This document shows positions 2,401-18,654 of a DNA stretch of 19,602 bases, piece by piece (position 1 is the stretch's first letter; the number at the start of each line of letters is the position of its first letter). The DNA comes from a virus (taxonomy: Duplodnaviria; Heunggongvirae; Uroviricota; Caudoviricetes). The notes beneath the pieces are model-generated. The model ran no database searches. It had not been told where the DNA came from and saw only the letters and a list, made by a program, of their open reading frames with translations. The stretch is taken from IMG/VR virus record IMGVR_UViG_648276650_000010, positions 1 through 19,602 of that record, one strand, 5' to 3'. The translations under genes were made by a program, and so were the position numbers.

Positions 2401-3099
2401 TATTCACCTTTTTTTGTTGTTTCAGTCTAACTTTGTCTAACAGAGCAGGGTCGAACATCGATTCAACAGCTTTCTTGCGTTTAAGCTCCTGTTGCTCTTT
2501 CTCTTTTTCGATTTCCTCTTGAGACTTAAACACAGAATCTTTAATAAGCAGGTGATCTTTCATGTTGAGCTTTTTCCTATATTCTTTTGTAAGATTAGGA
2601 TTATTAGCTTCGATAGTGTGGACCAAACGTGCTTGATAGAAATCGTTATAGACAGGACCTTGAGGTTCAATAAACGAGTCGAAAAACCATAGTTCGTAAT
2701 ACATCATCACGGACATCTGTTGAATTTCATCGTTAGATAATCCGCGACGTAGCATTGTTCTATACTGAAATGATTTAGCCCAGTTCTGTCTTAGTTCTTT
2801 TCCAGAACGTCTGATTTCTTACTGAGAATACTGGCAGTAGAAACAGCACTAGCAAGAGTTGAACGAACAGTGGTATAAAGTTTCTGAACTTGAGCGATTT
2901 CTTTAAAAACAGGAGTTCCGTCTTCGTGTTGAATACAATTCAGAATCATTCGGTCGTTACGTTCTTCTGTGTTTTCATTTTTGAAATAGAATTCACCGAA
3001 TTCAGATACGGTCATAGGACGAGCATAGAATTTAAAGCCGTTGATTTCTACTGGTTCGCGAGAAGGCGAAAGACTTGCTAACATTTCATCGAAATTCAT
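2393..3099 (-). CDS. predicted G-T fusion chaperone made by -1 programmed ribosomal frameshift
   Basis: The -1 frame is open from a TAA at 2821-2819 down to the stop at 2395-2393, overlapping the last ~8 codons of the G frame. The T-frame stop overlaps the tape measure start by 8 nt. The frameshift itself is inferred; the slippery site is non-canonical. Confidence 0.5.
2791..3099 (-). CDS. tail assembly chaperone, gpG-like, 102 aa
   Basis: ATG at 3099-3097 with an AAGGGA SD-like element; stop TAA at 2793-2791. Sits directly upstream of the tape measure gene, and a -1 frame ORF overlaps its 3' end (classic G/GT arrangement). N-terminal segment VEINGFKFYARPMTVSEFGEF resembles the lambda gpG N-terminus as I recall it. 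Confidence 0.65.
   Translation of the reverse strand: MNFDEMLASLSPSREPVEINGFKFYARPMTVSEFGEFYFKNENTEERNDRMILNCIQHEDGTPVFKEIAQVQKLYTTVRSTLASAVSTASILSKKSDVLEKN
2794..2821 (-). promoter_or_regulatory. candidate -1 frameshift window; best heptamer GGAAAAG at 2797-2803
   Basis: This is the only stretch where the G frame and the T frame are both open. Minus-strand sequence is AGT AAG AAA TCA GAC GTT CTG GAA AAG AAC TAA. It contains the A-AAG lysine slippery motif but not a canonical X-XXY-YYZ heptamer. Confidence 0.35.
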
Positions 3100-3133
3100 T
3101 TTTGTTTCCCTTTGTTGAGTTTTCTTTTATTTA

Positions 3134-3162
3134 TGAAAAAGGGAGCGCGAGGCTCCCTTTTG
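3134..3162 (-). terminator. intrinsic terminator (bidirectional-looking) after the 105-aa gene
   Basis: Stem GGGAGC (3141-3146) pairs with GCTCCC (3152-3157) around a 5-nt loop. Flanked by AAAAA (3136-3140) and TTTT (3158-3161), so it is followed by a U-tract on either strand. Located between the stop at 3163 and the G start at 3099. Confidence 0.65.
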
Positions 3163-3480
3163 TTATTTCCATTGAAAGAAATATCCGTACATTCTGAAAC
3201 CTTTGTGGATATATTCAATCATTCCTAAGTTCTTCGCTTCGGTCTCAAAAAATGGACCTTGCAGTCGAACTGTCTGTCCTAATTTGAAATGACAATTAGG
3301 TTTTTTCTTCTGTGTTGAAACAATAAAAACGTTCTTATCGTTGAACAGATATTTTTTAATTCGCTTATCTTTGATGTGTTCGCAACCGTAAGGAACAGTC
3401 ATTGACTCGGGATTAATCTCGTTAACGTAGATGTCGGCAAGTTCGTCTAATCTGTAAGTATCAAAATCGTGAATGTTCAT
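3163..3480 (-). CDS. hypothetical protein, 105 aa
   Basis: ATG at 3480-3478 with an AGGAGA SD; stop TAA at 3165-3163; followed by a terminator. No recognisable motif. Confidence 0.55.
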   Translation of the reverse strand: MNIHDFDTYRLDELADIYVNEINPESMTVPYGCEHIKDKRIKKYLFNDKNVFIVSTQKKKPNCHFKLGQTVRLQGPFFETEAKNLGMIEYIHKGFRMYGYFFQWK

Positions 3481-3497
3481 TTGTTCTCCTTTTGACT

Positions 3498-4040
3498 TTA
3501 TTTAGTACCCGCAACACGCTTAACGGTTTTGAATATATCGTCAGAGATTTGATTCCATGAACCCAGAGTTTTTCTTCTGTGTTGATTTTTCTTGAATACA
3601 GCAATTAAACGACGGTCTTGCTTTTTAACGTTAGTTTTAATGAGGATCGTTCGAGTTACGCCATCTTTTTTTTGCTTGACAGCTTCAAGATTATTTCTTG
3701 ATTTCAAGTTAGGAATGTTACCGAATTTGTTCTTTGAACCTCTTACACCAGTTGGAACAAACTTGTTAATTCCTTTGTTATCATCAATTAACGGAGCAAG
3801 ATAATCAGCCTGCTTGTCTTTGATGAATATTCTATTTCGTGACCCGTTCTGATCGTATCTGAAACTGAAACCTACTGCGTTCTTAGTGAAATTAACTGGT
3901 CCATCGACTCGTCTGTTGATTTTTCTTTGCAACTCAACAGAAGCGAGTTTAGACGCTTTGGTTACTTTCTTACTGAACACGTCAGATTCTTTGATTCGCC
4001 ATTTTTCAAGGTCTTTCATAACATCTTTTGCTTTTGCCAT
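3498..4040 (-). CDS. hypothetical strongly basic (Lys/Arg-rich) protein, 180 aa
   Basis: ATG at 4040-4038 overlaps the stop of the upstream 65-aa ORF (TAATG coupling). Composition suggests nucleic-acid binding; too basic to be a typical tail tube protein. Function unknown. Confidence 0.6.
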   Translation of the reverse strand: MAKAKDVMKDLEKWRIKESDVFSKKVTKASKLASVELQRKINRRVDGPVNFTKNAVGFSFRYDQNGSRNRIFIKDKQADYLAPLIDDNKGINKFVPTGVRGSKNKFGNIPNLKSRNNLEAVKQKKDGVTRTILIKTNVKKQDRRLIAVFKKNQHRRKTLGSWNQISDDIFKTVKRVAGTK

Positions 4041-4237
4041 TAGTTCACTCCTGACATCAGAAGCGTCCCAAATGTTTTTATCTGTTCTTCGCTGATAAGA
4101 ATCATTTTAGGTGCTTTAATATCGAAAGCTTGCAGAACAGGAACAGCAACAGTGTTATAAGTTATAGTAACGAGAAATAGAACAATAAGATAATCTTTAG
4201 CGTGTTTTGCCAATGCTTGGAGATATTTCATTTTCAT
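4040..4237 (-). CDS. small membrane protein, 65 aa, one predicted TM helix
   Basis: ATG at 4237-4235 with a GGTG SD 5 nt upstream. Hydrophobic segment YLIVLFLVTITYNTVAVPVL. Overlaps the 3' end of the endonuclease gene by 41 nt and is coupled to the downstream 180-aa gene. Confidence 0.45.
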   Translation of the reverse strand: MKMKYLQALAKHAKDYLIVLFLVTITYNTVAVPVLQAFDIKAPKMILISEEQIKTFGTLLMSGVN

Positions 4238-4673
4238 ATTTCACCTTTATTTGGTTTGAGTAGACTTTTTCAAGCTCCTTTTTCGTTTTAAGGTTTGAAC
4301 CTGTAATAGCTTTCATCTCAGAAAGATTTTTTCGAGAGAACGCCTTCTTTAAATCAGGAATAAGTTGTGGATGCGTAGGATTGTCTGAGTAGTCTTTTTC
4401 AAGATACTGAACAAGATTCTTCAAAAACTCGATGTAGTCAATTTTCCCATCGAGACCCGAACGTTTAAACTGATGTTTTATTCTGCCCTCTAGGACGTTT
4501 GCTTGAGCGATTAATAATCCTCTGCATCTGCCTGCGTTAGAGCCTGTTAATATATGGTCATGGTCAAGATGGGCTTTATTAACTTCATGAATCTTTATGC
4601 CAGTTAAAGCACAAAGACCTTTTTGCTTTTGAAAGAGTTCTTGCTTATAAATCGGAATCTCTTTTCTTTTCAT
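4197..4673 (-). CDS. T4 endonuclease VII (gp49)-like nuclease, 158 aa, with degenerate zinc-binding site
   Basis: ATG at 4673-4671 with a GAGG SD; ATGA overlap with the upstream 94-aa gene. The segment HLDHDHILTGSNAGRCRGLLIAQANVLEGRIKHQFKRSGLDGKIDYIEFLKNLVQYLEKDY aligns closely with my recollection of T4 endo VII (HLDHDHELNGPKAGKVRGLLCNLCNAAEGQMKHKFNRSGL...). The catalytic Asp/His/Asn/Glu positions appear retained, but three of the four Cys Zn ligands are replaced (by T, I, A). Confidence 0.8.
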   Translation of the reverse strand: MKRKEIPIYKQELFQKQKGLCALTGIKIHEVNKAHLDHDHILTGSNAGRCRGLLIAQANVLEGRIKHQFKRSGLDGKIDYIEFLKNLVQYLEKDYSDNPTHPQLIPDLKKAFSRKNLSEMKAITGSNLKTKKELEKVYSNQIKVKYENEISPSIGKTR

Positions 4674-4954
4674 TTTCCTCTTAGAACTGCTAGGTCGATA
4701 TCTAGCTTTGCTGTTCTTCCTTCTAAATTCTTCAAATCAGATTTGACCTCTCGAAATTCATCCTGTTGTCGTGTTATATCGCTTATAAGCGAAGCATCTT
4801 TTGCGTCATTAACGGCTATGCTTTTTTCGATGTCTGAGAAACGTTTCTCAAGGTCAATTCGTTTTTCATTGTTTGATTTAATTTCGGCATAAACCCAAGC
4901 CAAGAAACCTCCTAGAGCACCCAAGATGGAAATGATCAGTGCTATATCGACCAT
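4670..4954 (-). CDS. membrane-anchored coiled-coil protein, 94 aa
   Basis: ATG at 4954-4952 with two AAGGAG-type elements upstream. N-terminal hydrophobic helix (IALIISILGALGGFLAWVYA) followed by a charged heptad-like region. Function unknown; i-spanin-like or exclusion-like topology. Confidence 0.6.
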   Translation of the reverse strand: MVDIALIISILGALGGFLAWVYAEIKSNNEKRIDLEKRFSDIEKSIAVNDAKDASLISDITRQQDEFREVKSDLKNLEGRTAKLDIDLAVLRGK

Positions 4955-4999
4955 CTTGAATCTCCTTTTTAAAAGACCTCCTTGTCTTTATTTAGAACG

Positions 5000-7900
5000 T
5001 TATTGTTGTTTACTGATAAAGTAAACTGCTCTTGCTGCGGTCGCATGATTCAAGTCAGCACCGTAACTCAAATCAACAGCTTGTCCCGCATAGATAATGC
5101 CTGTACCACCGTTTGAACCACTCATTGCACTGGTAACTGTTCTTACGATTTCTTGACCGTTCGACATATTAATCCATGCAGTTCCGTAGCCCCAAGCACC
5201 ACCGGAATAAGTTCTGCCTGAAATCGAAAGGTTTGGAATAGAAATTACTCTGTTCCAGTTAACAGCAGGAATATGAACTGTTGTCCACGGATCTATATGA
5301 CCCATTTTGATAACGTCACCTTCAATTCTGTCAGCGTATACAGTTCCTGTGAAATAACCTGAACCGCCTCTGATTTCACCTGCGAAATAACCAGAATCTG
5401 CTTGAATGTTACCTCTGATATTAACGTTTTGGAAAGAAGCCCAACCGTCTTTTCTGATTGTCCAACCTTGAGTACCACCGGAAGGGAACCAGTTATCAGA
5501 AGATATTTCATAAGCAATCTGTGCTGAACCGATCTGAGCATTACCAATTTTCGCAGTAGTAATCGCACCGTTTTCAATCTTCGCGTTGTTAATAGCACCG
5601 TTTTGAATCTTAGCGTTGTTAATAGAAGCATCTGCAATCTGTGCTGAACCGATAGAAGCATTACGAATCATTGCAGAATCCATATAAACTCTGTTATCAG
5701 CGACCATAAACGGAGCAACAGCACCCGCAGGAGTATTGTTATTCGTTATAGCGATTTTATCAGCGTTAAAAACAATACTAGACTGTTTTGAACCGTCAGG
5801 ATTCTTATTAGCCAGCATACTGATACCAGCAACAACACCGTCGGCATTAGTCTGAACTGCCCATTTGCTATTAATCGTTCCTGTTAAGTCGTCAACGCTT
5901 GCTTTTGATTCTTGACTAACTGTTGCAATAGCTGTGTTTGTTTCAGCTTTCAATTGATTAATTGAACTTGCGGTTGCTTGTCTATCATCAGCTTGAGTTT
6001 TTTCAACTTTCGTAATAGCCGAGTTAAGTTTTCCATCAAAGTTAGATTCTTGAATACTGATAGCCTGATTGATAGCGCCATTAGTTTCATTAGTAATCTG
6101 AGTATGAAGTTCGGTGTTTTTCGTCGTGATAGTCTGATTTAATTCAGTAGTAACTTTTTGCTCGGATGCTGTAACTTTCGTATCAGTGTATTTGTTAGCG
6201 AGGTCTAATGCTTCATCGATAGCACCATCAACACGTTTATCCAAATCAAGCAAATCGTTTAACTGTTCTTTCATATCGTCAGTCCACGGAATATCCCATT
6301 TCATATCGATAAACTTCGATTCTGACCAAGTAATCTGGTCTTGTCCGAATACGTCATACCAAGCTGAACGAACATAGAATTGACCATCTTCTAATGGAAA
6401 ATTATCTAAGAACGGACTTGAACTTGAATAAACGTGAACAATTTCATTAAAACTCTGGTCTTTCGCAATATGAACGATTGTGCCTTTGAAGTCAGGAACT
6501 TCAGGCTTATTATCGCGTGGGTCATTCCAAGAGCACATCAGCATTCCAGGACCATTCGAAGCTGTGAAACCTTGAATAGCAGGAGCTTGATTGTTCTTAA
6601 CAGTAATAACAGCAGGATCTGACTTCATACCAGCGTGACCGTATGCAGTAACAGAAACTTTCAATTCACGACTCAGACCATTACCCAAGTTCATATTAAA
6701 GTCATATACAAAACCTAAGTCTTTAGTCTTGTAAATTACAGGACGCTGACCTTCAATTTTGATTTCGTAATATTGAAAAACTTCACCGAATGTCTGTAAC
6801 GTGTCGTCAACATAGAATTTCTGTGCGCTCTGGTCGTCCCAGGCGAATTCAAATTGAGTCTTGTTAGTGGTGTATTGATTTTCAACTGCGTTCACTAGGT
6901 GCAGTCCTGTAACGACTGGTAAGTTATACATAACCTCAGGGTTAACGTTATTGACATAAACCCAATCTGAACGATACACAACACCAGAAGCACAAACACG
7001 AATATCAAATTTCTGATTAGGGTCAAGACTCATAATCAAGAAATAATCGCCTGATGTGAAACCTGCTTGAATCCAAGAGTTCTTACCAGCAAGACTATAC
7101 TGAATATAATAACCTGCGCGATTATAATCAGGTTCAGACGTCCATTGAACTTTCAGAGTTCTTCCTAAAGCTGTTTCAGCAACTGCTTTAACTGTCAGAT
7201 TCTTAGGAGCAATCAGAACAGATTTATTAGGAATGTTGCTTCCTGTGTTATCAGGGTCTTTCGCGTAGTCAAGATTGGTATAAACTTCTTCGATATATTC
7301 AGAAGCAGTAATAGTAACGATACCAGCAGCACCTTTATTCATCGAACGATCGATATTAGTAATACGCCATAATGAATTCACAAGTTCCAGTTCAGAGAAA
7401 TTAACTCTGATAACATCCCAGACCTGTGCGGTATAAGCATCAGCAGTTGAAAAACTAATAACTTGCTTTAACAGAGATTTGTTACGTTCGATTGAAGCAA
7501 TTTTATCCAACTGAGATTTTGATTTCACGAATCTGTAACTGATATCTTTAGCGATAATACGTTTATCTTTCGCGATTGTTCCATCATTTGTTACGTCAGA
7601 CGGATAACGCAGAACTTGGTCAGAATAGTCAATCGACGGATCTTGATATTTCACGTTCAGAGTATTGTAATAATTCTCAGAACCGCCATCGTTTAAGCTA
7701 ACAGTACCAGCGTTAATATTATCTTCGTTGAAGTCATATTGAACAACATCAGGTCCATCGATTCTGCATGTTACTTTACCGAAAGTCTCTGTGATAATAC
7801 CGTTAAATGCACCTGCAAGCTGAGTTAAGTTTTCTTTGAATGAACCGTTCGGGTCAGTTGCACCATCAGAAAATAAACTGTTCAGTTTTGCATATCGAGC

Positions 7901-8689
7901 AGCTTCTTTAAAACTATCAAGGTCGATTTTATCAATCTGAATTCCAAGACCGTATCTATCATTTGTTAGATAATCAACAATCTGACTCGGACCGTTGTTC
8001 GAGGAAACGCGTTCTCCTGTGTTCAGATCTGTAATCAAACGTCCTCTAACGTCAACAGATACTTGACTGTTAGGTTGCAGGATATCAGCTTGGTTTTGAA
8101 GGTCTGAGTTACGTTTGCGCATAACAACACAACAAGCAGCGATGTTATTACCAGTAGCAGAATCAGGCCAGCCAGCATCTGAATTTCCTAGATATTTCTG
8201 AGCAAGAGTAAAAACGTGACCGTATGGCTTACCAGTTGAGAATTCAACTTCAACATATTGCTGATATTCAGCAGCGATTGAACCTTTCGGAAGAACACCG
8301 TCTTTATAAACGCCATCAAGTAAGATTTTCTGATTATCCATATAAAGGTTTTTGAAGCTATCAACTTCACCTTCACAGATTGCAAAGATCTGAACCAAAT
8401 ATGTCGTATCAACGCCAACAGCTTTCCAAACGTTAATCGTACCTGTACGCTGTTCACCATAGATAATAGGAATAACACTTGATGGATCTGACGTTGTTCC
8501 TAATGTCGTTGCTGTGTCTGTGCTGTTAAATCGGGGAACGTTCTGCGCCATCTGAGTTGACATCAAAGCAGAAACAGCAGCAACAGCGACACCAATACCA
8601 ATTGCCAAAGCAAGAGCAGCACCCGCAGCGTAAGCAGCAGCAGCCGCGGAAGCACCTGCGATAATTGCACCAATAGCTACAATAGCCAT
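5000..8689 (-). CDS. lambda J-like tail tip / host specificity protein, 1229 aa, with hydrophobic N-terminal extension
   Basis: ATG at 8689-8687 overlaps the upstream stop (TAATG). The region PIIYGEQRTGTINVWK...YLVQIFAICEGEV matches the conserved N-terminal motif of J-type tip proteins; the C-terminal region (FMVADNRVYMDSAMIRNASIG..., NIRGNIQADSGYFAGEIRGG...) resembles the lambda J C-terminal receptor-binding region as I recall it. Confidence 0.75.
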   Translation of the reverse strand: MAIVAIGAIIAGASAAAAAYAAGAALALAIGIGVAVAAVSALMSTQMAQNVPRFNSTDTATTLGTTSDPSSVIPIIYGEQRTGTINVWKAVGVDTTYLVQIFAICEGEVDSFKNLYMDNQKILLDGVYKDGVLPKGSIAAEYQQYVEVEFSTGKPYGHVFTLAQKYLGNSDAGWPDSATGNNIAACCVVMRKRNSDLQNQADILQPNSQVSVDVRGRLITDLNTGERVSSNNGPSQIVDYLTNDRYGLGIQIDKIDLDSFKEAARYAKLNSLFSDGATDPNGSFKENLTQLAGAFNGIITETFGKVTCRIDGPDVVQYDFNEDNINAGTVSLNDGGSENYYNTLNVKYQDPSIDYSDQVLRYPSDVTNDGTIAKDKRIIAKDISYRFVKSKSQLDKIASIERNKSLLKQVISFSTADAYTAQVWDVIRVNFSELELVNSLWRITNIDRSMNKGAAGIVTITASEYIEEVYTNLDYAKDPDNTGSNIPNKSVLIAPKNLTVKAVAETALGRTLKVQWTSEPDYNRAGYYIQYSLAGKNSWIQAGFTSGDYFLIMSLDPNQKFDIRVCASGVVYRSDWVYVNNVNPEVMYNLPVVTGLHLVNAVENQYTTNKTQFEFAWDDQSAQKFYVDDTLQTFGEVFQYYEIKIEGQRPVIYKTKDLGFVYDFNMNLGNGLSRELKVSVTAYGHAGMKSDPAVITVKNNQAPAIQGFTASNGPGMLMCSWNDPRDNKPEVPDFKGTIVHIAKDQSFNEIVHVYSSSSPFLDNFPLEDGQFYVRSAWYDVFGQDQITWSESKFIDMKWDIPWTDDMKEQLNDLLDLDKRVDGAIDEALDLANKYTDTKVTASEQKVTTELNQTITTKNTELHTQITNETNGAINQAISIQESNFDGKLNSAITKVEKTQADDRQATASSINQLKAETNTAIATVSQESKASVDDLTGTINSKWAVQTNADGVVAGISMLANKNPDGSKQSSIVFNADKIAITNNNTPAGAVAPFMVADNRVYMDSAMIRNASIGSAQIADASINNAKIQNGAINNAKIENGAITTAKIGNAQIGSAQIAYEISSDNWFPSGGTQGWTIRKDGWASFQNVNIRGNIQADSGYFAGEIRGGSGYFTGTVYADRIEGDVIKMGHIDPWTTVHIPAVNWNRVISIPNLSISGRTYSGGAWGYGTAWINMSNGQEIVRTVTSAMSGSNGGTGIIYAGQAVDLSYGADLNHATAARAVYFISKQQ
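5514..5653 (-). repeat. intragenic tandem and direct repeats in the J-like gene
   Basis: Exact 20-nt direct repeat gcaatctgtgctgaaccgat at 5514-5533 and 5634-5653 (120 nt apart, in frame), with 30-nt-period near-repeats at 5561-5620 between them. Encodes a periodic motif (IGSAQIA ... NNAKIQNGAINNAKIENGAITTAKIGNAQ). Confidence 0.8.
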
Positions 8690-9105
8690 TATTTTCTCCT
8701 GTTAAAAATTAATTCAAAATTAAAATCGTTGACGTTTATCAGTTGATATTTATTTTCATGTTCAACTAATGCTCTATTATTAAAAACGATAGATGCAACG
8801 TAATAGACACGGTTTTTATGTTTTTTCTTAATTAAGATAACCGAGCCTGTTTCTATAGTTTCTGATTTCTCAAGATGCGTTTCACACGCTTCGAGAACGT
8901 TATTAAAACCAGTTAGCTCTTTGCAAATCTTGAGACCTTCAGGAATACTCGTGTATTTGTCTTTTAATTTGTCTGTGTATTCAGTAGCACAAACAAGGTC
9001 GATATATTCAGCAACAAGGATATTACAGTCGTTTTGACCGAAAACGTGTTGCTGATTGATATAGCGGTTAAGTAATTTTGATAAGTCAGCTTGAAATTTA
9101 AACAT
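8689..9105 (-). CDS. hypothetical Cys/His-containing protein, 138 aa, translationally coupled to the J-like gene
   Basis: ATG at 9105-9103 with a GAGGTGA SD; stop overlaps the J start. Motif GQNDCNILVAEY plus downstream His residues could fit a papain-like fold (speculative). Position suggests a tail tip assembly role. Confidence 0.5.
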   Translation of the reverse strand: MFKFQADLSKLLNRYINQQHVFGQNDCNILVAEYIDLVCATEYTDKLKDKYTSIPEGLKICKELTGFNNVLEACETHLEKSETIETGSVILIKKKHKNRVYYVASIVFNNRALVEHENKYQLINVNDFNFELIFNRRK

Positions 9106-9132
9106 GTTTCACCTCTGACTTTATTTAGAGCC

Positions 9133-9161
9133 AAAAAAAGACCCCTTGCGGAGTCTTTTTA
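9133..9161 (-). terminator. intrinsic terminator after the 158-aa gene
   Basis: On the minus strand: GACUCC-GCAA-GGGGUC (6-bp stem with one U-G wobble, GNRA loop) followed by seven U. Stem at 9140-9155, A-run at 9133-9139 on plus. Begins 7 nt after the stop at 9163. Confidence 0.7.
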
Positions 9162-9162
9162 A

Positions 9163-9639
9163 TTAATCACTTGATGTCAAATCAACAACACCAGAAACAA
9201 CAGGACCACCATCAACACTCAGTGTCATTGTCAGACCTTGAACTTCTGATTCACCGCCATTATGAACAGCGCTTGACAAGAAGCCGTTATAAACTTTTGC
9301 AACACCCAGTTTTTTAGTAGCATCAATCCAATAAACGATTTTAAACTGACCACGTTTACCATCTTCCGCAAGCTTAATCAGAACATCATGAACGCTTTCT
9401 GGAATATAGTTAACGGTCAAGTCGATATCAGGAACAGAGCCACGACCAACCAGTTTACGGGAGTATTTGTGAGAGAAGTTAGGAGCTGTAATAACTTCGC
9501 GTTCAATACCCGTAGAAGGGAATGCACCAGTTTCAGGAATTTCAACAAACTTTTCTGAATTCAGATCGGTGTTTGCAATTTCTGAGTTATAGAACACACT
9601 GACGTAAGAGCCAGCAAAAATATCAAATTTGTCTGCCAT
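9163..9639 (-). CDS. hypothetical acidic beta-rich protein, 158 aa, probable virion structural protein
   Basis: ATG at 9639-9637 with an AGGAAA SD; stop TAA at 9165-9163. No TM segment or signal peptide. Bracketed by terminator-like hairpins on both sides (stand-alone transcription unit). Fold and function not assignable from sequence alone. Confidence 0.55.
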   Translation of the reverse strand: MADKFDIFAGSYVSVFYNSEIANTDLNSEKFVEIPETGAFPSTGIEREVITAPNFSHKYSRKLVGRGSVPDIDLTVNYIPESVHDVLIKLAEDGKRGQFKIVYWIDATKKLGVAKVYNGFLSSAVHNGGESEVQGLTMTLSVDGGPVVSGVVDLTSSD

Positions 9640-9680
9640 TTTTAATTTCCTATTTGAGTTAATATAGTTTATTTAGCAAA

Positions 9681-9699
9681 GGGGATTTCTCCCCTTTTT
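9681..9699. terminator. terminator-like hairpin directly after the tail fiber stop
   Basis: GGGGA (9681-9685) pairs with TCCCC (9690-9694) around a 4-nt loop. On plus it is followed by TTTTT (9695-9699); on the minus strand only by UUU, so minus-strand termination is probably partial. Confidence 0.5.
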
Positions 9700-9700
9700 G

Positions 9701-12700
9701 TTATTTAGCTTCAAGTTCTTTAACGCGAGCACTTAATTCCTTGATAGCATTAACCAGCAACGCGTTTACAGCAGCAGAGTTAACACCAAGAATTTCGTCA
9801 GGTCCGAAAGAACTAACAGCTTCTGGTAATACTTCTTTCAGTTCTTGAGCAATAATACCTGCTTCACGAACTTCGAATGAATATTCAGTTTTGACTAAAT
9901 CAGATTTCTTATCGTATACGTAACCAGTAAGTTTCTCGACTTTATCAACTGCGTTTTCAATTTCTTCAAAGTTCGATTTCAGACGTTTATCAGAAGTGCT
10001 AACCCATTGGATCGCATTTGCTGTTCCATTACCGAGGAATAGATAGTCTGCACCACCAATGTGAAGTGCAGCCTCGGGAGCAGAACTACCCGGATTATAA
10101 ATGTCCATCGCAGCACCGTATTCTGTGCCCCAATGAACATGTTTCCAGATATTAATACATTTATCACGAGTCTGAGCTTCAACAATCATTCCCGCAGGAC
10201 GATCACGCCACGCTGACCACTGCGGCCAACCGTCAACGACACCTTGAATCATCGCATTGCTTGCCCCGGTTCTAACGTTTCCAACATAAACACCGCGAGA
10301 CTCATTATGGGTGTTAATCGTAATTGACCGATCAATTGTCAAACCAGCTGTGTTAAAGGTTGCGATTTGAATACCATTAGTAAAAATGCTTAAGTTTCCG
10401 TCCGTAACTTGTCGAATACCTGTATCGTTATCACCAAACGCGATTGAGTTTCCACCTAGTACGTTGTCCGTGTTAATACCAAAACTTGTTAAACGATTTG
10501 TTTCAACAGAAGGAGTATTAATTTTTCCAGGAACAGCAAAACGACCATCGATATCAAATTCATAATTAGCCATTTTACCGAACGTCGATTCTTCTTTCGT
10601 CCCAACACGAAGAATTCCTTTGCCCCATGAATTAGCTGGTCCTCTAATAGTTCCTAATTCAACAACAGTAGAGAATCCGTGTCCTACGGAAACAGAGTTC
10701 ATCGAATATCCGGGATAATAATCACTTTCACCAGCAACTGCTCCGAAGTTAATCTGCATAGGAGCATTTTGTCTCCATTGATTAGCGTAAGCATGATCAT
10801 TGGTTGCTGCCCATCTTGCACCATCAATTTGAATTGTATTATGCTGAATATCCATCGCGGTATTAGTACCAGTCTGAACCGTCACGGATCCGTTAGTTCT
10901 AAGAGTAACACCAGATGACGTAGAGAAATCATTTCTCATATTCTGAGACCAGACAATATCGAGATTCTCACTTGTCTTGCCAAGAATCCAGGTATTATTG
11001 CGACCGTCCATATTGCCAGACATATAACTTGCCTGATTCGACGCAGGAATATTCAACTGAATAGCATTAGATTCGCCGTTGACAGAAACACCACTTGCAA
11101 GATTCAATCGACCATTGGTGTTTAATGAACCCATCCAATATTCAGGAGTATCACCATGAAACCAACATATAGAGTTATCCAGCCTATCGTCAGGATGATT
11201 AGCCATTGCCAACTCATGATAAATGGATCCAGCACCAACGGCTCTAACTTTTCTTAAATGATTTGATTGTTGCTCAGGAGTGTTCCAGTCGGGTAAGCTT
11301 TCCGAGTCATACCATCCGTAAGGCTTATTATTATAAATCGTTTTATAGAAACTTGCAGGGCCAGCAACACCAAGACCTTCTTTAGTATCAATATAAGTTC
11401 TGCCTGAACCTCTCAGATAATGATTATATTTTCCACCATTAACTAATCCGAAATAAGTCGTGGCGTCACCAATGTTATTACCGTCGGTTGTCGTATCGAT
11501 ATTAATTAATGAATAACCTTCAGGAGCCATCAGATTCGAATCACCATCATCACTTCTGAAACGGAAATGAGTTTTTCTATTAAAGTAGTTTTCAGATCCT
11601 GCAATAGAAGCTGTTACAACGTTATTTGAATAGAAGTTTAACCATCCGTCTTCTCTCCATTTAAAACCAGTGTCGGAATCACCAATCGCGATAGAGTTTA
11701 AACCCAGTGAATTTCCAACGGCAAAGTTGCTTGCAACGGACATTAAAGGAGTTGTTACTGCATCAGTGATTCTAGCTTGACCTGAAATATCAATTGACAT
11801 TCCTCTGCCTGTTTTTCCCCAAGTCATGGTCATTAGATCTAATGCGTCGGTTCCTTCGTTAGCATCACGACGAAATAACAGTCGATCATCCGTATCCGTT
11901 GCGTATGCAATTTGATGAATAGTCTTTGAAGTTCTGCCGTGGTTTTCAATACTCAGAACATCACCGTTATTACCAGCAGGTGTAACTTTCAAAGTTCCTG
12001 CGTATACATTACCAGCAGCATGAACAGAAGGAACAGTTAAGTCGCCAGTCATCGTGTCGCCAGCTTTATTAACTTTGGTGTCAATCATGTCTTTCAGAGT
12101 CTGATTATCAACAGTCAAACGGTCATTAACTGCTTTAATCTTTTCGTCAGCATCAGCTTTATTCGCATCAACTTTCGTATTAATAGCCGTGTCGTTCTGG
12201 TCAACTTTTGAATTCAGATTATCAACGCGAGTGTTAATAGCAGCGTCGTTAGCATCAACTTTCTGTTCGAGTTTCGTCAGGTCAGCACTTGAACCTGTTT
12301 GAACTTTGCTGATTTCAGAATCAACGTAATCTTTACGCGTAGCGCTATCAGGAGCAACAGGAGCAGCAGGCAAAGATAACTGACCATTACCGTTAAGCAC
12401 GAAGTCAGAACTCTCTCCTGTACCTTTTCCTTTCGCTACCGTAACACGAAGTTCACCTTTAGAGTCTGTCTGAGCAGGAGAACTAATACGTGCTTTTGCT
12501 TTGTCGTGTTCATCAGCAAAAACAATATCGCTTTTATCAAGATTTTTTAAAGTCAGATTAGAATCGGATTCAATATCACTTGCTTTAATTTTTCCAGTAA
12601 AGGTCTGACCGCCTTCAACAACAGCATCAGCACCATTACCGATGTTAATAACAGCGTCACCGAATTTAGTAAAAATCTTTTTATCGGCTAAGTTAATAGC

Positions 12701-12784
12701 GATTTCACCATCAAGCATGTTTTTCGCTTCTGGCTTTCTTCCGGCGACGTCTGTTCTATAATGTTTAACTTTATTATTTGCCAT
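9701..12784 (-). CDS. tail fiber protein, 1027 aa, with C-terminal intramolecular chaperone (peptidase S74-type) domain
   Basis: ATG at 12784-12782. N-terminal fibrous repeats (VDxNDxAINTxVD) and a DTMTGDLTV motif typical of phage fibers. C-terminal WVSTS-DKRLKSNFEEIE...YVYDKK...EAGIIAQELKEVLPEAV...NAIKELSARVKELE matches the auto-cleaving chaperone domain seen in endosialidase-type tailspikes and L-shaped fibers. Confidence 0.8.
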   Translation of the reverse strand: MANNKVKHYRTDVAGRKPEAKNMLDGEIAINLADKKIFTKFGDAVINIGNGADAVVEGGQTFTGKIKASDIESDSNLTLKNLDKSDIVFADEHDKAKARISSPAQTDSKGELRVTVAKGKGTGESSDFVLNGNGQLSLPAAPVAPDSATRKDYVDSEISKVQTGSSADLTKLEQKVDANDAAINTRVDNLNSKVDQNDTAINTKVDANKADADEKIKAVNDRLTVDNQTLKDMIDTKVNKAGDTMTGDLTVPSVHAAGNVYAGTLKVTPAGNNGDVLSIENHGRTSKTIHQIAYATDTDDRLLFRRDANEGTDALDLMTMTWGKTGRGMSIDISGQARITDAVTTPLMSVASNFAVGNSLGLNSIAIGDSDTGFKWREDGWLNFYSNNVVTASIAGSENYFNRKTHFRFRSDDGDSNLMAPEGYSLINIDTTTDGNNIGDATTYFGLVNGGKYNHYLRGSGRTYIDTKEGLGVAGPASFYKTIYNNKPYGWYDSESLPDWNTPEQQSNHLRKVRAVGAGSIYHELAMANHPDDRLDNSICWFHGDTPEYWMGSLNTNGRLNLASGVSVNGESNAIQLNIPASNQASYMSGNMDGRNNTWILGKTSENLDIVWSQNMRNDFSTSSGVTLRTNGSVTVQTGTNTAMDIQHNTIQIDGARWAATNDHAYANQWRQNAPMQINFGAVAGESDYYPGYSMNSVSVGHGFSTVVELGTIRGPANSWGKGILRVGTKEESTFGKMANYEFDIDGRFAVPGKINTPSVETNRLTSFGINTDNVLGGNSIAFGDNDTGIRQVTDGNLSIFTNGIQIATFNTAGLTIDRSITINTHNESRGVYVGNVRTGASNAMIQGVVDGWPQWSAWRDRPAGMIVEAQTRDKCINIWKHVHWGTEYGAAMDIYNPGSSAPEAALHIGGADYLFLGNGTANAIQWVSTSDKRLKSNFEEIENAVDKVEKLTGYVYDKKSDLVKTEYSFEVREAGIIAQELKEVLPEAVSSFGPDEILGVNSAAVNALLVNAIKELSARVKELEAK

Positions 12785-12796
12785 TTTCTTTATCCG

Positions 12797-13822
12797 TTAA
12801 AATACTCCTGCGTCTAAGGTTTCTCCTAACGCTACACAATTAATCTCTAATGGCGTTGGTTTATTACTTGGAGAATAGACTTCTTTGCCTTTGACCTTGA
12901 CAGAAGTTGAGTTAATTTCATTACTATTTAGAGCCAAGATTTCACCTTGTGGCGCAGAAATCTTTTTACGAACGTTCAGATATTCCTGAATAGTCAAAGA
13001 TCCTTTGAGTTCTCCACCAGTAATAGGCAAAGCATTAATATCTTCAGGAGTTGGACGTTCAAGTTCTGTATAGACTTTGACCCACGGAGATTCAGTAACA
13101 GTTTCACCGCTTTGTTGTTTGTTTCTGATTCTGATGCTTGGATTACCGACTGACGAACCAATAAGCTCCCAACCTTGACCATCAGGATGCTGAATAGCCA
13201 TAGCAGACGTGCCAGAGTTATAAGGGTTATCGCTGTTTGTTGCATCGACTGTTACACATCTGTTACCAGTTAATAATCCTAAGTCTTTAACGCCTGCGAT
13301 TTCTTCTGTACCAGCACCAATACCATAATCGCCAACGTTTAACGGAACTGAGAATTCAGCAAAACCTGTAAACAACTGACCATCAGGAGAAAGATTAAAA
13401 GTTGTTGTAACGACTGAGTTAGCCGAACCTGATGTTTCTTTCTTCGTTACATAAGCATTAAAAATATGATAAAGACCAGCATCATTATCTTTCTTTGTTT
13501 CTCCATCGATAACATAAAGACTTCTGAATCTAAGGAGTTTCTTTTCCATAAGAGCTTCATCAAGCAACTGATAAACTGGGTCAGAACTGTCTTCAAATAA
13601 GCTTATTGAAGTGTCGTTAATTGTTACGTCACCTGAAAGTTTCGTTGTGAAATCGGTTCTGTAATCTTCTAGTGTCTGAACTTCTTTTCTAAATCCGATA
13701 ACAGGGAATGCAGCCAGTTTATCAGTGCTTACATAACCTGGGTCGTTATATCCTGGGATTTCAACGATTAGCGGATTAACTGAAACTCTGACGTTATTTC
13801 CTACAAAAATATCGTTTGTCAT
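12797..13822 (-). CDS. major tail protein, gpV-like, with C-terminal Ig-like extension, 341 aa
   Basis: ATG at 13822-13820; stop TAA at 12799-12797. Position is right after the gpU-like gene. The segment NDTSISLFEDSSDPVYQLLDEA...LLRFRSLYVIDG resembles the lambda V pattern [23 protein letters not shown]...AYKIRFPNG as I recall it; C-terminal ~100 aa is beta-rich and Ig-like. Confidence 0.6.
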   Translation of the reverse strand: MTNDIFVGNNVRVSVNPLIVEIPGYNDPGYVSTDKLAAFPVIGFRKEVQTLEDYRTDFTTKLSGDVTINDTSISLFEDSSDPVYQLLDEALMEKKLLRFRSLYVIDGETKKDNDAGLYHIFNAYVTKKETSGSANSVVTTTFNLSPDGQLFTGFAEFSVPLNVGDYGIGAGTEEIAGVKDLGLLTGNRCVTVDATNSDNPYNSGTSAMAIQHPDGQGWELIGSSVGNPSIRIRNKQQSGETVTESPWVKVYTELERPTPEDINALPITGGELKGSLTIQEYLNVRKKISAPQGEILALNSNEINSTSVKVKGKEVYSPSNKPTPLEINCVALGETLDAGVF

Positions 13823-13829
13823 TTTAGTC

Positions 13830-14228
13830 TCACATTAAGTATTCGAAAGTTAAAATTATTTGTGCGCTAACATGACCATTTGATGCTTCACTATCATAAT
13901 CAGTGAAGCTCGAACTTGGATAAATCTTATCGATTTTAAATGGGATAAGTTTTTCATGATTAGCTTTAATAGAAATTAAGTCGTAAACGGCTTTGTGAAC
14001 GCCTGTTTCGCTTTTCTCTGAGAAAATATCAATCGTAATACTAAGAACACTTGCAAGTTTCGATTGCAAACCGATTCGCGTATATTCTTCTGTCATTCCT
14101 GGAATCATTACTTGAACAGGTTCTTTAACACCAGTTGTGAAAGCGTTTTTGACGTATTTCAGATTAAGTTCTTTAACGATTATTTCTTCCAGAGCGCGTT
14201 TAATTCCTAAACGTGGCAGATTAGTCAT
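13830..14228 (-). CDS. tail terminator protein, gpU-like, 133 aa
   Basis: I place the start at the internal ATG at 14228-14226, which overlaps the upstream stop by 8 nt; the ORF-track start at 14306 would overlap the upstream gene by 86 nt. C-terminus DYDSEASNGHVSAQIILTFEYLM resembles the lambda gpU C-terminus (DY..DDAG..SADLTYVITYEM) as recalled. Confidence 0.6.
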   Translation of the reverse strand: MTNLPRLGIKRALEEIIVKELNLKYVKNAFTTGVKEPVQVMIPGMTEEYTRIGLQSKLASVLSITIDIFSEKSETGVHKAVYDLISIKANHEKLIPFKIDKIYPSSSFTDYDSEASNGHVSAQIILTFEYLM

Positions 14229-14517
14229 AGAATGATGTCTCCTGTTCGCCTTTAAATGCCAGATAACAATTAGCAAGTCCTGAACCATCATTAACAAGAT
14301 ACGCAATGGTATACAGAATCTCGTTTAATAGAACTTCATCTTCTTGCTTAACTTTATTGATATCAGCGGTTATATAGATTGTCTCGCTTACTTGTCCGTT
14401 ATCGTTGTTAATCTCAATTTCAACAATACCGAGTTCATCAGAATCGTTAATTTTGATTTTCTGTCCGAAACGAGTTAAGAAAGACTGTTTTTGTTTTTCT
14501 GAATATGGAAAAATCAT
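14221..14517 (-). CDS. head-tail joining (neck) protein, 98 aa
   Basis: ATG at 14517-14515 with an AAGGAGA SD; first gene after the capsid terminator. Small and acidic, in the position of a head completion/connector protein. No specific family assignable. Confidence 0.5.
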   Translation of the reverse strand: MIFPYSEKQKQSFLTRFGQKIKINDSDELGIVEIEINNDNGQVSETIYITADINKVKQEDEVLLNEILYTIAYLVNDGSGLANCYLAFKGEQETSFYD

Positions 14518-14552
14518 GTTGTCTCCTTTTTATTATATTTAGTCCAGAAACG

Positions 14553-14576
14553 AAAAAAGGACTCCCGAAGGAGTCC
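14553..14576 (-). terminator. strong intrinsic terminator after the major capsid gene
   Basis: On the minus strand: GGACUCC-UUCG-GGAGUCC (perfect 7-bp stem, UUCG tetraloop; stem 14559-14576) followed by UUUUUU (14553-14558 on plus). Lies about 50 nt downstream of the capsid stop. Confidence 0.85.
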
Positions 14577-14597
14577 TCTGATTATTCAGCAGTTTCA

Positions 14598-14627
14598 GCT
14601 TTCGCTTTCGCTTTTGCTTTTGCTTTT
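14598..14627. repeat. five tandem hexamers (GCTTTC x2, GCTTTT x3 on plus; AAAAGC/GAAAGC on the mRNA) immediately 3' of the capsid stop
   Basis: Read directly from the sequence. Starts 1 nt after the stop codon (14629-14631) and ends before the terminator hairpin. Confidence 0.8.
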
Positions 14628-14628
14628 C

Positions 14629-16533
14629 TTAGGCTTGTTTTTCGTGCAGGAACAGACGATCATCAGCACAAACTTTCCAATCGATATCAGCCCAAACGCG
14701 AGGAACGATAGCGCCTTTGTTACGGTAAGTTGTGTCGTCTAGGTCAAGAGCAAGACCTTCCCACTCAGCTACGGTTACAGCAGAGAAGTCACCAGAGATA
14801 ACCTGACCTTCTTTAACAAGACCGGAACCGATAACATCATGTCCGCCCAGTTTGTTCAGGTCGTCGATGATATAACCAGCAACACCAGCGTCACGCAGAG
14901 TGGTTTTCAAATCACCTTCAAGAGCAGCAGCCATCAAATATTTGAACTTGTCCATTGCTACGCCGTCGCCTTTAGCTTTAGCAGCTTCAACAACGAATTC
15001 TTTGTAGGTCATTCCCATCTGTTTTGCTACTAACTGAGCAACGATAGACTGAGGAGCTTTTGCGTCGGTAATAGAACCGAACATCAGACCTTCCAGTTTA
15101 GCGCGTGAGAAATTCACGATATGGTCAGAAATGAACGCACCCAGATTAGGCAGAGTCAACAGAGCTTGACGAGAAATCGGGTTACCACCAGTAAATGTCT
15201 TAGGCATAAACTGAATGTTTTCGAATTTGCTTTCGCCTTCTGGAGATTCACCGTTTTCATCAACGAAACCGAATGCATCAACACTTGATTTTGTCTGCTT
15301 AGGAACAGAAATCGGAGTAGTCAGACCAGTCAGGAAGTTAACTCCCAGCTTATCAGCAACAGTGTCTTTCAACAGCATTTCAACGAATGAATCATAACGC
15401 TGAACAGTTTCTTGTACTGCGGAAACAGTTGATACAGTGTTAATAGCGCGTTTGCCTTGCAGAGCACTAACTGGCATATAGATACCTTGAGAAACGTTAG
15501 CACCGCGCATCAGACGCTTACGGGACATTTCTTGAGTATATTCAGCAGCAGCACCGCGAACAGCTTTACCATTCATCATAGAGCGAACAGCATCGCCAAG
15601 GTCGAATTTATTTTCCAGAGTTTGTTTAGTATCTTTAGTCATGTTGCGAATCACCGTTGCAGATTTATTAGGTTTAATAGAGCGTTTGAATTGACGTGCG
15701 GTCATGCCTTTAGCGATAGCGCTTGCAACGTCTTTCTGTGCTACTTTGTAGCGTTGTGCGATTTCAAGAATTTCTTCCGCTTCTTCTTCGCGTTCTTCTT
15801 CTGTCAGTTCGTCACCAGCAGGAACAGCAGCAGGAGCGTCATCAGTTTTTTCAACAGCAGAATCACCAGCGTTTTCATTTTCAACGACTACTTCTTCCAG
15901 AATTTCTTCACGCTTTGCACGATCTTCATCGGACAGCATTTCAATTTCATCGATAGTCATTTCTGCCAGTTCATCTTTAGTCATTTCATCAATACGTTTC
16001 ATTCGAGTACCTTTGTTAAGTTTGTTTGTTGTATCTGTATTTAGTAGTCTTCCCAAACCGACTTTATCGTCAGCAGGAACAGTGACGAAAGAAATTTCAT
16101 ATGGTGCCCATTTCGTAACAATAAGATTGTCGCCTTCTAAGTGATATTCATTAATGTCATATCCGAAAGAGATTTTACTAATTGTTCCTTCTTGAACTTT
16201 TGCACCGATTTCTTTAGCTAATTCACCGTGTTGACTGAATTGGACTTTTGCTCGTCCTATTTTGTCTTCATCGATTCGAACAGAATCAGGAATAACGATT
16301 CCCAAGTGTTTATCAAAATCATGGTTAAACAGCAAAGCAGCACCGTTATTAATTCGGGTCAAGTCAGCGTTATGTGAGCCGTCATGAACGAGAATTTCAT
16401 TAACAGTAATGTTTTGACCGTATTCATCCTGAATCTGTCTTTCAACAGGAGTTTCAGAACTGAACGCAATTTCAAAAACACCATCAACAGAATCAATACC
16501 CTGAACTGTGTAATCGCGCTTAAGTTTTAGCAT
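14629..16533 (-). CDS. fused prohead protease / scaffold-like linker / HK97-fold major capsid protein, 634 aa
   Basis: ATG at 16533-16531 with a GAGGA SD. Residues ~1-177 carry the prohead protease signature (ISFGYDINEYHLEGDNLIVTKWAPYEISFVTVPAD, as in HK97-type U35/S78 proteases). Residues ~178-270 are acidic and helical (DELTEEEREEEAEEILE). The C-terminal ~360 aa look like an HK97-type capsid protein. An in-frame internal ATG with SD lies at 16002-16000 (M178). Confidence 0.8.
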   Translation of the reverse strand: MLKLKRDYTVQGIDSVDGVFEIAFSSETPVERQIQDEYGQNITVNEILVHDGSHNADLTRINNGAALLFNHDFDKHLGIVIPDSVRIDEDKIGRAKVQFSQHGELAKEIGAKVQEGTISKISFGYDINEYHLEGDNLIVTKWAPYEISFVTVPADDKVGLGRLLNTDTTNKLNKGTRMKRIDEMTKDELAEMTIDEIEMLSDEDRAKREEILEEVVVENENAGDSAVEKTDDAPAAVPAGDELTEEEREEEAEEILEIAQRYKVAQKDVASAIAKGMTARQFKRSIKPNKSATVIRNMTKDTKQTLENKFDLGDAVRSMMNGKAVRGAAAEYTQEMSRKRLMRGANVSQGIYMPVSALQGKRAINTVSTVSAVQETVQRYDSFVEMLLKDTVADKLGVNFLTGLTTPISVPKQTKSSVDAFGFVDENGESPEGESKFENIQFMPKTFTGGNPISRQALLTLPNLGAFISDHIVNFSRAKLEGLMFGSITDAKAPQSIVAQLVAKQMGMTYKEFVVEAAKAKGDGVAMDKFKYLMAAALEGDLKTTLRDAGVAGYIIDDLNKLGGHDVIGSGLVKEGQVISGDFSAVTVAEWEGLALDLDDTTYRNKGAIVPRVWADIDWKVCADDRLFLHEKQA

Positions 16534-16548
16534 TACCAGTCCTCTGTT

Positions 16549-16580
16549 GGAGCGTCTTTCGACGCTCTTTGTTTTTCTGA
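16549..16580. promoter_or_regulatory. stable stem-loop in the portal-capsid intergenic region, terminator-like only in plus orientation
   Basis: GAGCGTC (16550-16556), loop TTTC, GACGCTC (16561-16567), followed on plus by TTTGTTTTT. On the minus-strand mRNA it forms a GAAA-loop hairpin 17 nt upstream of the capsid SD with no U-tract after it. Confidence 0.45.
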
Positions 16581-16592
16581 ATGTATTTAGTG

Positions 16593-18143: not shown

Positions 18144-18634
18144 GATGGATTCGTGAACCTCGCTTTAATAGTAACAATCGGAGATTTACCGTTTGCCATT
18201 TGTTCTGACTTAATCAGATTTGCTAAGTTAGCTAAAAGTCGTTTTCGAGCCATAAGCAGCGAATCAAGCGTTTCATAAACGAATGATTTACCGTTAATAC
18301 TCATTTGTTGAATAGCTTCTTCGTTACTTGTCAGACGATACTGAATAACTGTATCGATATCGTTAATCATTTCTCTGAGTTGTTCTCTTTTCGTTTTTGA
18401 AACGAATGGTGATTTCACTTTGATAATGCTGTTACTGATAAGCGCACCTTCATAGAGAACAACAACAGAAAAAGTTCCTTCGATAAAATCTGATGTGTCC
18501 ACCGAGATATTCGCTGGACAATCAGTTTGAGAAAACAATTTAGTTTCAGTTGAGCCTATGGAGACTGTTGCACCTTCAGGATTATAAACAGCGAGTTTTT
18601 CACCGATGTAAATTTCTGAATTTGATTTTTGCAT
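18140..18634 (-). CDS. gpW-like head-tail joining protein with ~85-aa N-terminal extension, 164 aa
   Basis: ATG at 18634-18632 with a GGAGAA SD; lies between terminase and portal as lambda W does. The C-terminal ~75 aa (INGKSFVYETLDSLLMARKRLLANLANL...) resemble lambda gpW ([23 protein letters not shown]...) as recalled. The N-terminal beta-rich half has no counterpart in 68-aa gpW. Confidence 0.55.
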   Translation of the reverse strand: MQKSNSEIYIGEKLAVYNPEGATVSIGSTETKLFSQTDCPANISVDTSDFIEGTFSVVVLYEGALISNSIIKVKSPFVSKTKREQLREMINDIDTVIQYRLTSNEEAIQQMSINGKSFVYETLDSLLMARKRLLANLANLIKSEQMANGKSPIVTIKARFTNPS

Positions 18635-18654
18635 TGAGTTCTCCTTTCTTATAT

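Follow-up and report, generated by a model that had tools for sequence, protein, structure and literature searches.

In the 19,602-nt stretch of viral DNA analysed here (the window; positions 1 to 19,602 of the IMG/VR record IMGVR_UViG_648276650_000010, Caudoviricetes), a gene for a 158-aa protein lies between a tail fibre gene and the genes for tail tip proteins, as stated in the initial annotation, with a hairpin on each side. The question raised by this arrangement is whether the gene encodes an abundant structural protein, possibly tube-like, or is a moron, i.e., a gene that has been independently acquired, is independently expressed and is dispensable for virion assembly. In all likelihood, the protein, hereafter referred to as TTP158, is the major tail tube protein of the siphovirus-type module of an integrated element of about 33 kb, and the flanking signals are punctuation of the late operon.

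TTP158 matches PHROG 158, annotated as major tail protein, with an E-value of 5.3e-16 and coverage of residues 2-148. The closest known proteins include the N-domain of lambda gpV and the tail-tube families PF16461, PF16460 and PF08813 of Pfam, and among 28 members of the TTP158 family, 10 match such families. The cut-off of PF16461 (lambda tail tube protein) is exceeded by the homologues P0033 and P0037, and that of PF08813 is passed by P0038 and just met by P0039, with about 39-52% identity to TTP158 for the homologues passing either of them. The structure modelled with AlphaFold2 (AF2) on the family alignment is a beta sandwich containing a single helix and a long, disordered hairpin (residues 39-68), and fold comparison assigns it to the tube/Hcp beta-sandwich. 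The named matches obtained with Foldseek in BFVD, a search that had been proposed as a check, are tail tube or major tail proteins. Also the acidic and beta-rich character initially ascribed to the protein is borne out (pI 4.91, mostly beta in the model). Identity to short tube proteins of solved structure from siphophages and tailocins, namely 80alpha gp53, Sf11 gp24, monocin MttP, the R4C major tail protein and the RcGTA tube protein, is only 11-15%. The PDB label 'neck whiskers' of Sf11 gp24 is misleading, as the corresponding paper names it tail tube protein (PMC12724387). In searches against phages, tblastn with TTP158 found only Escherichia phage DCP80 and two weak matches in Pelagibacter phages, and megablast of positions 8600-13900 against phage genomes gave no match. 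Because of the profile match, the fold and the synteny in relatives described below, TTP158 is placed in the siphovirus tail tube family and is very probably the major tail tube protein of a lambda-like virion module of siphovirus type, supporting the abundant structural protein considered initially.

Homologues were gathered via protein look-ups, GTDB genomes and IMG/VR, yielding 37 loci with the tube gene and 80 with the terminase gene as anchor (designated by L numbers); the scan of GTDB genomes gave 3 loci only. A tube homologue is present in all 37 tube-anchored loci and in those terminase-anchored loci that extend far enough, so that the comparison of related phages asked for initially finds the gene wherever a locus reaches its position. 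The order in all covered loci is capsid gene, connectors, a gene for a p341-like protein (p341 being a 341-aa tube-protein paralogue encoded in the window), fibre gene(s) and tube gene, with tube homologues reaching down to 39% identity in several enterobacterial genera. In type A relatives (39-64% identity), comprising Hafnia, Edwardsiella, Atlantibacter, Buttiauxella and many IMG/VR contigs, the tube gene is directly followed by the genes for a tail assembly chaperone, a T-like open reading frame (ORF) and the tape measure protein, and then by Dit-like, DUF2163-type, DUF6950 and J-like genes; direct adjacency of tube and chaperone genes was found in L001, L005-L008, L010, L011, L030-L040 and many of L065-L118. 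Major tail genes are canonically found directly 5' of the frameshifted chaperone pair and the tape measure gene. In type B relatives (at least 65% identity), the clade of the window, the chaperone/tape-measure block has moved behind the tip genes, and the chaperone gene of the window is displaced by about 6 kb from the tube gene. TTP158 is also the best-conserved structural protein, with an identity of 64% to its counterpart in L008, for which capsid protein and portal reach only 50% and 40%, respectively. The rearrangement of the tail module was followed by comparing window positions 1-9105 with L008, L010 and L005, and in type B the Dit-like and DUF2163 genes are found in inverted orientation at the opposite end of the element (L013, 35384-36594). 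A role as distal tail protein (Dit) was considered and rejected, since a separate Dit-like gene exists: in type A relatives it follows the tape measure gene (about 187 aa, weak match to PF21430 in L008) and in E. coli it is located at the other end of the element. Apparent relatives lacking the p341/fibre block, with the tube gene directly after the head genes, were likewise discarded, as these matches were the tube query cross-matching the p341 paralogue.

Several observations weigh against TTP158 as the major tail tube protein. The protein itself remains under the Pfam cut-off (PF16461, 15.1 bits versus a threshold of 26.1) and has no Pfam match at E ≤ 0.01, NCBIfam gave no match for it, and comparison of the family profile with PDB sequences resulted in chance-level matches only, without any solved tube protein. 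The AF2 model is of moderate confidence (predicted local distance difference test score, pLDDT, 61; predicted template modelling score, pTM, 0.56). In the window, the DUF6950 gene, the J-like gene and six small genes separate the tube gene from the chaperone and tape measure genes. The codon usage adduced below was evaluated with an informal list of preferred E. coli codons. Finally, there is a second tube-fold protein, p341, whose gene comes right after those for head completion, a place taken by the major tail gene in many siphophages. The entire TTP158 is homologous to residues 1-160 of p341 (BLASTP, 28% identity, E 1e-10), the p341 and tube families are aligned by hhalign with a probability of 99.4% (E 2.4e-21), and the p341 model matches the same solved tube proteins as TTP158, so that the repeating subunit cannot be identified by fold.

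The competing explanation surviving best is that p341 is the true major tail protein and TTP158 a minor tube-fold part, such as a tube initiator, an adaptor ring or a terminator-like ring. Besides the shared fold and the gene position, the N-domain of p341, modelled with higher local confidence, and the PHROG 158 profile, having 376 positions and thus nearer the length of p341, speak for it. Nevertheless, this exchange of roles is rather improbable, as it is the TTP158 gene and not the p341 gene that lies directly 5' of the chaperone and tape measure genes in type A relatives. In addition, only the first 270 residues or so of p341 are conserved and its C-terminus changes with the type of the downstream fibre gene, including a T4 gp36 domain in Klebsiella relatives, while in L011 the p341-homologous domain forms the N-terminus of a 927-aa trimeric S74 fibre. 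Conservation with respect to L008 is 44% for p341 versus 64% for the tube protein, and the fraction of preferred codons, according to the list mentioned above, is 0.47 versus 0.61, the latter value being the third highest in the window after those of the capsid (0.69) and chaperone (0.62) genes. Moreover, the p341 gene has no hairpin, terminator or CTAAATA motif (see below) of its own and is separated from its neighbours by only 7 and 12 nt. Judging from these sequence features, p341 is most likely not the tube but a single tube-like ring that would anchor the side fibres. We know of no solved tail in which fibres are anchored via a tube paralogue fused or coupled to them, nor of a tube paralogue fused to a fibre adaptor in 80alpha, Sf11, monocin, R4C or RcGTA.

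The TTP158 gene is bracketed by two hairpins. The downstream hairpin, beginning 2 nt past the stop codon, reads AAAAAGACUCC-GCAA-GGGGUCUUUUU and then UU on the coding strand, and its folding energy of -13.9 kcal/mol (z = -2.8 versus dinucleotide shuffles) was attained by 3 of 200 shuffles. It has the GC stem and the U tract on the transcribed strand by which intrinsic terminators are recognised and is, by its sequence, a canonical one, in agreement with the strong terminator initially annotated directly downstream of the gene. A consensus terminator scan did not list it, probably because the stem was extended by A/U pairs, so that the tail window did not contain enough T. The upstream hairpin, AAAGGGGA-GAAA-UCCCCUUU, is equally real as a structure (-12.4 kcal/mol, z = -3.2) but does not show this combination. 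On the coding strand, only G-CUAAAUAAA (UUU) and no proper U tract follows the stem, whereas the T run (TTTTTGTTATTT) is on the opposite strand, where the consensus scan placed a terminator of the plus strand. The initial term, terminator-like hairpin, is therefore a fair one, although as a terminator in sense direction it is weak at best. Because of this weak U tract, transcriptional read-through from the fibre gene into the tube gene is likely. In the whole window, 15 terminator-like sites were found versus 13.5 expected from shuffles, i.e., there is no excess, and the case for a function of the hairpins thus rests on conservation. By manual count in 31 non-redundant relatives, a GC hairpin with U tract right after the stop codon of the tube gene is found in about 27 of these and a hairpin in the gap 5' of the gene in about 26, the latter mostly without U tract, and the stem sequences of both vary from locus to locus. 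Hence, the hairpins are most likely conserved operon punctuation of an abundant structural gene and not marks of a foreign insertion.

This bears directly on the possibility of a moron-type insertion. Flanking of the gene by a hairpin and a strong terminator and its detachment from the chaperone and tape measure genes in the lineage of the window would suit a moron, and with the HK97/HK022-type morons of lambdoid phages the gene shares transcription signals of its own inside a late operon. Unlike these, it is a core conserved structural gene, found at the same position in every covering relative down to 39% identity and homologous to tail tube genes, and both points, named initially as grounds for refutation, together refute the moron reading, which is left with hardly any probability. 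In addition, its composition is not atypical, with a G+C content of 0.40 and 0.28 at third codon positions (GC3) compared to 0.40 and 0.29 for the fibre gene and 0.40 and 0.30 for the J-like gene, a scan of the coding strand of the 61-nt gap upstream (9640-9700) revealed no sigma-70-like promoter, and the same punctuation surrounds the capsid gene. Equally far-fetched would be a decoration protein of capsid or tail, or a secreted protein like Hcp, having only the beta-sandwich fold in common with tube proteins, considering that the top structure matches and all named viral ones are siphophage tube proteins, that the sequence-profile matches are tail tube families, that its syntenic association with chaperone and tape measure genes in relatives is in keeping with a tube protein, and that no type VI secretion genes are nearby.

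Besides the hairpins, a short motif, (C/A)TAAATA, contributes to the punctuation. Oriented with the genes, it is present in every window gap of at least 45 nt, i.e., in the gaps 5' of the capsid, tube and chaperone genes and in those 3' of the capsid terminator, the tube terminator and the J-like gene; a further copy overlaps the stop codon of a 180-aa gene. Its usual position is 1-10 nt past a hairpin, with 14-34 nt left to the next ATG; only in the gap preceding the capsid gene does it lie elsewhere, namely 17 nt 5' of the hairpin and 48 nt 5' of the ATG. The coding strand of the window has 9 copies of CTAAATA versus 0 on the other strand, and 5 of the 9 copies are within 487 intergenic nucleotides (binomial p about 1e-6). 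In a comparison of 11 diverse loci, strand asymmetry among 3420 hexamers is highest for TAAATA (138:8), and among 3170 heptamers ATAAATA (53:0) and CTAAATA (50:0) rank first and second; in about 60 loci, the strand count of TAAATA amounts to 719:28. In relatives, the motif is kept at the same places despite diverged surroundings (seen in L001, L003, L004, L008, L009 and L010). The capsid gene shows the same punctuation by terminator and motif in the window and in six relatives, and hairpin plus CTAAATA also precede several other late genes. The autonomous and highly expressed unit envisaged initially for the 158-aa gene is plausible, but the signals are not specific to it.

CTAAATA as a -10 element of a sigma-70 promoter was rejected by inspection, as the A at -11 and the T at -7 that are conserved in such elements are missing from it in every register. 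The motif 5' of the tube gene is identical to CTAAATA (from -12), the putative late-promoter consensus of the T4-like phage Aeh1 (PMC1524935), and the copy in DCP80 reads TATAAATA, the consensus of T4 late promoters recognised by gp55. In common with late promoters of this type, the motif of the element is strictly oriented with late genes and concentrated in intergenic gaps. In contrast to T4, the virion genes of the element are siphovirus-type and lambda-like, and no homologue of gp55, gp33 or gp45 was recognised with PHROG and Pfam among the non-structural ORFs of the E. coli element described below, several of which have no match at all. The likeness to T4-type late promoters is accordingly regarded as a resemblance of sequence and not as a demonstration of promoter function.

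The most economical model reconciling these findings is a late operon punctuated for the capsid and tube genes, in which promoter activity of the motif and control of stoichiometry by terminators are proposed. By homology, the acidic TTP158 subunits of about 17 kDa would assemble into stacked hexameric rings around the tape measure protein, helped by the G/GT-like chaperones, in a tube that would start on the tip complex of Dit-like, DUF2163 and J-like proteins and serve as the DNA conduit. Because a virion needs far more tube protein than products of the neighbouring genes, the tube gene is proposed to be set off by its own signals within the late operon. Indirect indications of the presumed abundance are its codon preference, its conservation, the highest among the structural proteins, and the terminator dedicated to it. 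The upstream hairpin would close the fibre gene and be followed by CTAAATAAA, a candidate late promoter or processing site. The terminator right after the tube stop codon would reduce transcription into the low-copy tip genes and might also stabilise and protect the 3' end of the abundant tube mRNA. Capsid and tube protein, the two mass-produced proteins, would thus each be closed by a real terminator, and the low-copy genes beyond would be transcribed by read-through or by re-initiation at the box. A more far-reaching version, in which the tube gene, like the capsid gene, is a separate late transcription unit re-initiated at the T4-class box and the whole family depends on a gp55-type sigma factor, is unlikely. 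The sigma factor could then be an unrecognised one of the element itself or be supplied by a superinfecting T4-like phage.

The punctuated tube gene can also be compared with that of lambda. Both modules have the tube gene beside G/GT-type chaperone and tape measure genes (in type A relatives) and the element possesses lambda-type terminase (GpA) and portal genes. In contrast to the lambda protein, TTP158 is without the Ig-like C-terminal domain, is below the Pfam cut-off and, in the lineage of the window, is encoded apart from chaperone and tape measure protein. A further difference is the bracketing by hairpins, which to our knowledge is not found around lambda V.

All sizeable ORFs of the window are on the minus strand, constituting one co-directional late operon (Table 1). 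Transcription proceeds from the large terminase gene, cut by the window edge, via the genes for a 164-aa head-tail joining protein, the portal and the capsid fusion to a 98-aa and a 132-aa gene, p341, the 1027-aa fibre, the 158-aa protein, DUF6950 and the J-like protein, and then via six small genes including that for endonuclease VII to the tail assembly chaperone, the T-like ORF and the tape measure gene. By comparison with L012, the 3' end of the tape measure ORF is 200 nt past the left edge of the window (position 1).

Table 1. Features of the window discussed in the text, in the order of transcription, and p341-like proteins of relatives.
Feature	Position	Strand	Remarks
Lambda-type portal gene	16593-18143	-	
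Protease/major-capsid fusion gene	14629-16533	-	
Terminator (strong) 3' of the protease/major-capsid fusion gene	14556-14579	-	CTAAATATA follows at 14534-14542; punctuated alike, for comparison
p341 gene (341-aa tube-protein paralogue)	12797-13822	-	tube domain (residues 1-160), conserved middle domain and variable C-terminus
Tail fibre gene	9701-12784	-	1027 aa; C-terminal Peptidase_S74 chaperone domain
Hairpin 3' of the fibre gene stop codon	9678-9697	-	8-bp stem, GAAA loop
CTAAATAAA motif 5' of the tube gene	9668-9676	-	1 nt past the upstream hairpin, 28 nt before the TTP158 ATG; candidate late promoter or processing signal
Shine-Dalgarno sequence AGGA of TTP158	9648-9651	-	8 nt 5' of the ATG; read from sequence
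TTP158 gene (158-aa tail tube protein)	9163-9639	-	ATG start; identification very probable
Intrinsic terminator 3' of the TTP158 stop codon	9133-9160	-	11-bp stem, GCAA loop, U7
Second CTAAATAAA motif	9120-9128	-	4 nt past the U run of the terminator, 14 nt before the DUF6950 ATG
DUF6950 gene	8689-9105	-	
J-like tip protein gene	5000-8689	-	1229 aa
Endonuclease VII gene	4197-4673	-	T4 gp49-type
Tail assembly chaperone gene (G-like)	2791-3099	-	PHROG 344; PF16459 weak match in L003 and L004
T-like ORF	2393-2755	-	frame open from 2818, overlapping the end of the chaperone gene in the -1 frame
Tape measure protein gene	1-2400	-	PHROG 13674, E 4e-70; first 799 aa within the window
(C/A)TAAATA(A) motif sites	16582-16590, 14534-14542, 9668-9676, 9120-9128, 4987-4995, 3497-3505, 3126-3134	-	
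p341-like proteins of relatives	L011, 7163-9946; L009, 4349-5566		

Some of the genes show peculiarities of their own. The -1 overlap between the T-like ORF and the chaperone gene (2794-2818) is open for 25 nt before the chaperone stop codon, across ...CUGGAAAAGAAC; this arrangement would be compatible with a G/GT-type frameshift, and no canonical slippery heptamer is present in the overlap. The endonuclease VII gene sits within the tail gene cluster and is kept in type B relatives and DCP80; next to it are a 65-aa ORF and the gene for a small protein of 94 aa whose N-terminal part has a hydrophobic stretch. At its N-terminus, the J-like protein has a hydrophobic stretch of about 45 residues rich in Ala, Gly, Ile and Val (MAIVAIGAIIAGASAAAAAYAAGAALALAIGIGVAVAAVSALMST). 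In the mechanical ORF list, the minus-strand gene at 13830-14306 appears as a second 158-aa ORF with TTG start, whereas RefSeq and all relatives start it at the ATG at 14228, resulting in a 132-aa protein and an 8-nt overlap with the 98-aa gene.

Over the 1.6 kb tested, a segment of E. coli 2021CK-01361 has the same sequence as the window. In E. coli, the element occupies about 33 kb between ybiT and ldtB (L012; L013, corresponding to NZ_CP107720.1, 3247950-3281330; L014) and is carried by only 6 of 5426 complete genomes. It possesses the full siphovirus gene set for head, tail, packaging and lysis, including a small terminase subunit and a lysozyme, as well as a large serine recombinase and a variable defence cargo comprising a retron Ec67-type reverse transcriptase, a TIR protein and a homing-endonuclease-like gene. 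Searching its unannotated ORFs with PHROG and Pfam gave only the small terminase subunit, the homing-endonuclease-like protein and a GntR-type regulator, and no replication protein, repressor, late regulator or sigma factor was recognised. Clustering of ORFs from 72 IMG/VR relatives, the contigs of which are mostly 28-36 kb in size, characterises the region upstream of the terminase gene as a variable cargo zone, and no conserved regulator was found there over the 72 loci. The family represents little-studied integrated phage-like elements of 30-36 kb in enterobacteria. T4-type features of the element are the endonuclease VII gene, T4-type fibre modules and a G+C content of about 0.39, and one relative was co-assembled with a T4-like phage (DCP80, see below); a link of the family to T-even phages is nonetheless of low probability, and in the literature on the retron Ec67 prophage and on T4-dependent satellites nothing relevant was found. 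In strain 2021CK-01361, ISEc68 interrupts both the J-like and the large terminase genes (L012, 18050-19030 and 30942-31922), while the J-like gene of the window is intact and its terminase gene is cut by the window edge. Strain L3Cip3 (L014) has an IS3 element between the capsid and 132-aa genes, and its fibre gene is largely unannotated.

Among isolated 'phages', only DCP80 (PQ671644.1; L001, L015 and L016) has a closely related module; it is filed as a 141-kb Gaprivervirus with 26 kb of this siphovirus-type element at the start of the record. Since the record contains three copies of rIIA and duplicated genes for exonucleases, with those for T4 capsid and sheath proteins out of order, it is treated as a jumbled co-assembly, and the idea of a natural chimera between a T4-like phage and a siphovirus module was dropped.

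As a consequence of these assignments, a protein listed by RefSeq as 'hypothetical' in six complete E. coli genomes can be named tail tube protein, and the same naming extends to many prophage-like elements of Klebsiella, Enterobacter, Hafnia, Edwardsiella and Atlantibacter. The bracketing hairpins can be read as punctuation for stoichiometry rather than as a sign of foreign cargo. In itself, the TTP158 gene is most likely a major tail tube gene of the ordinary kind whose flanking RNA signals are conserved, and the fibre-coupled paralogue and the T4-class motif are of greater importance. As the tube protein and its paralogue are conserved as a pair and the paralogue is coupled or fused to side fibres, such a pair may be a means by which a siphovirus tail holds its fibres. 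A T4-class promoter-like box in an element without recognisable replication or regulator genes leads to a testable hypothesis on how and by whom such elements are switched on. If a gp55-type sigma factor were supplied by a superinfecting phage, the family would consist of virion-encoding satellites or hitch-hikers of T-even phages.

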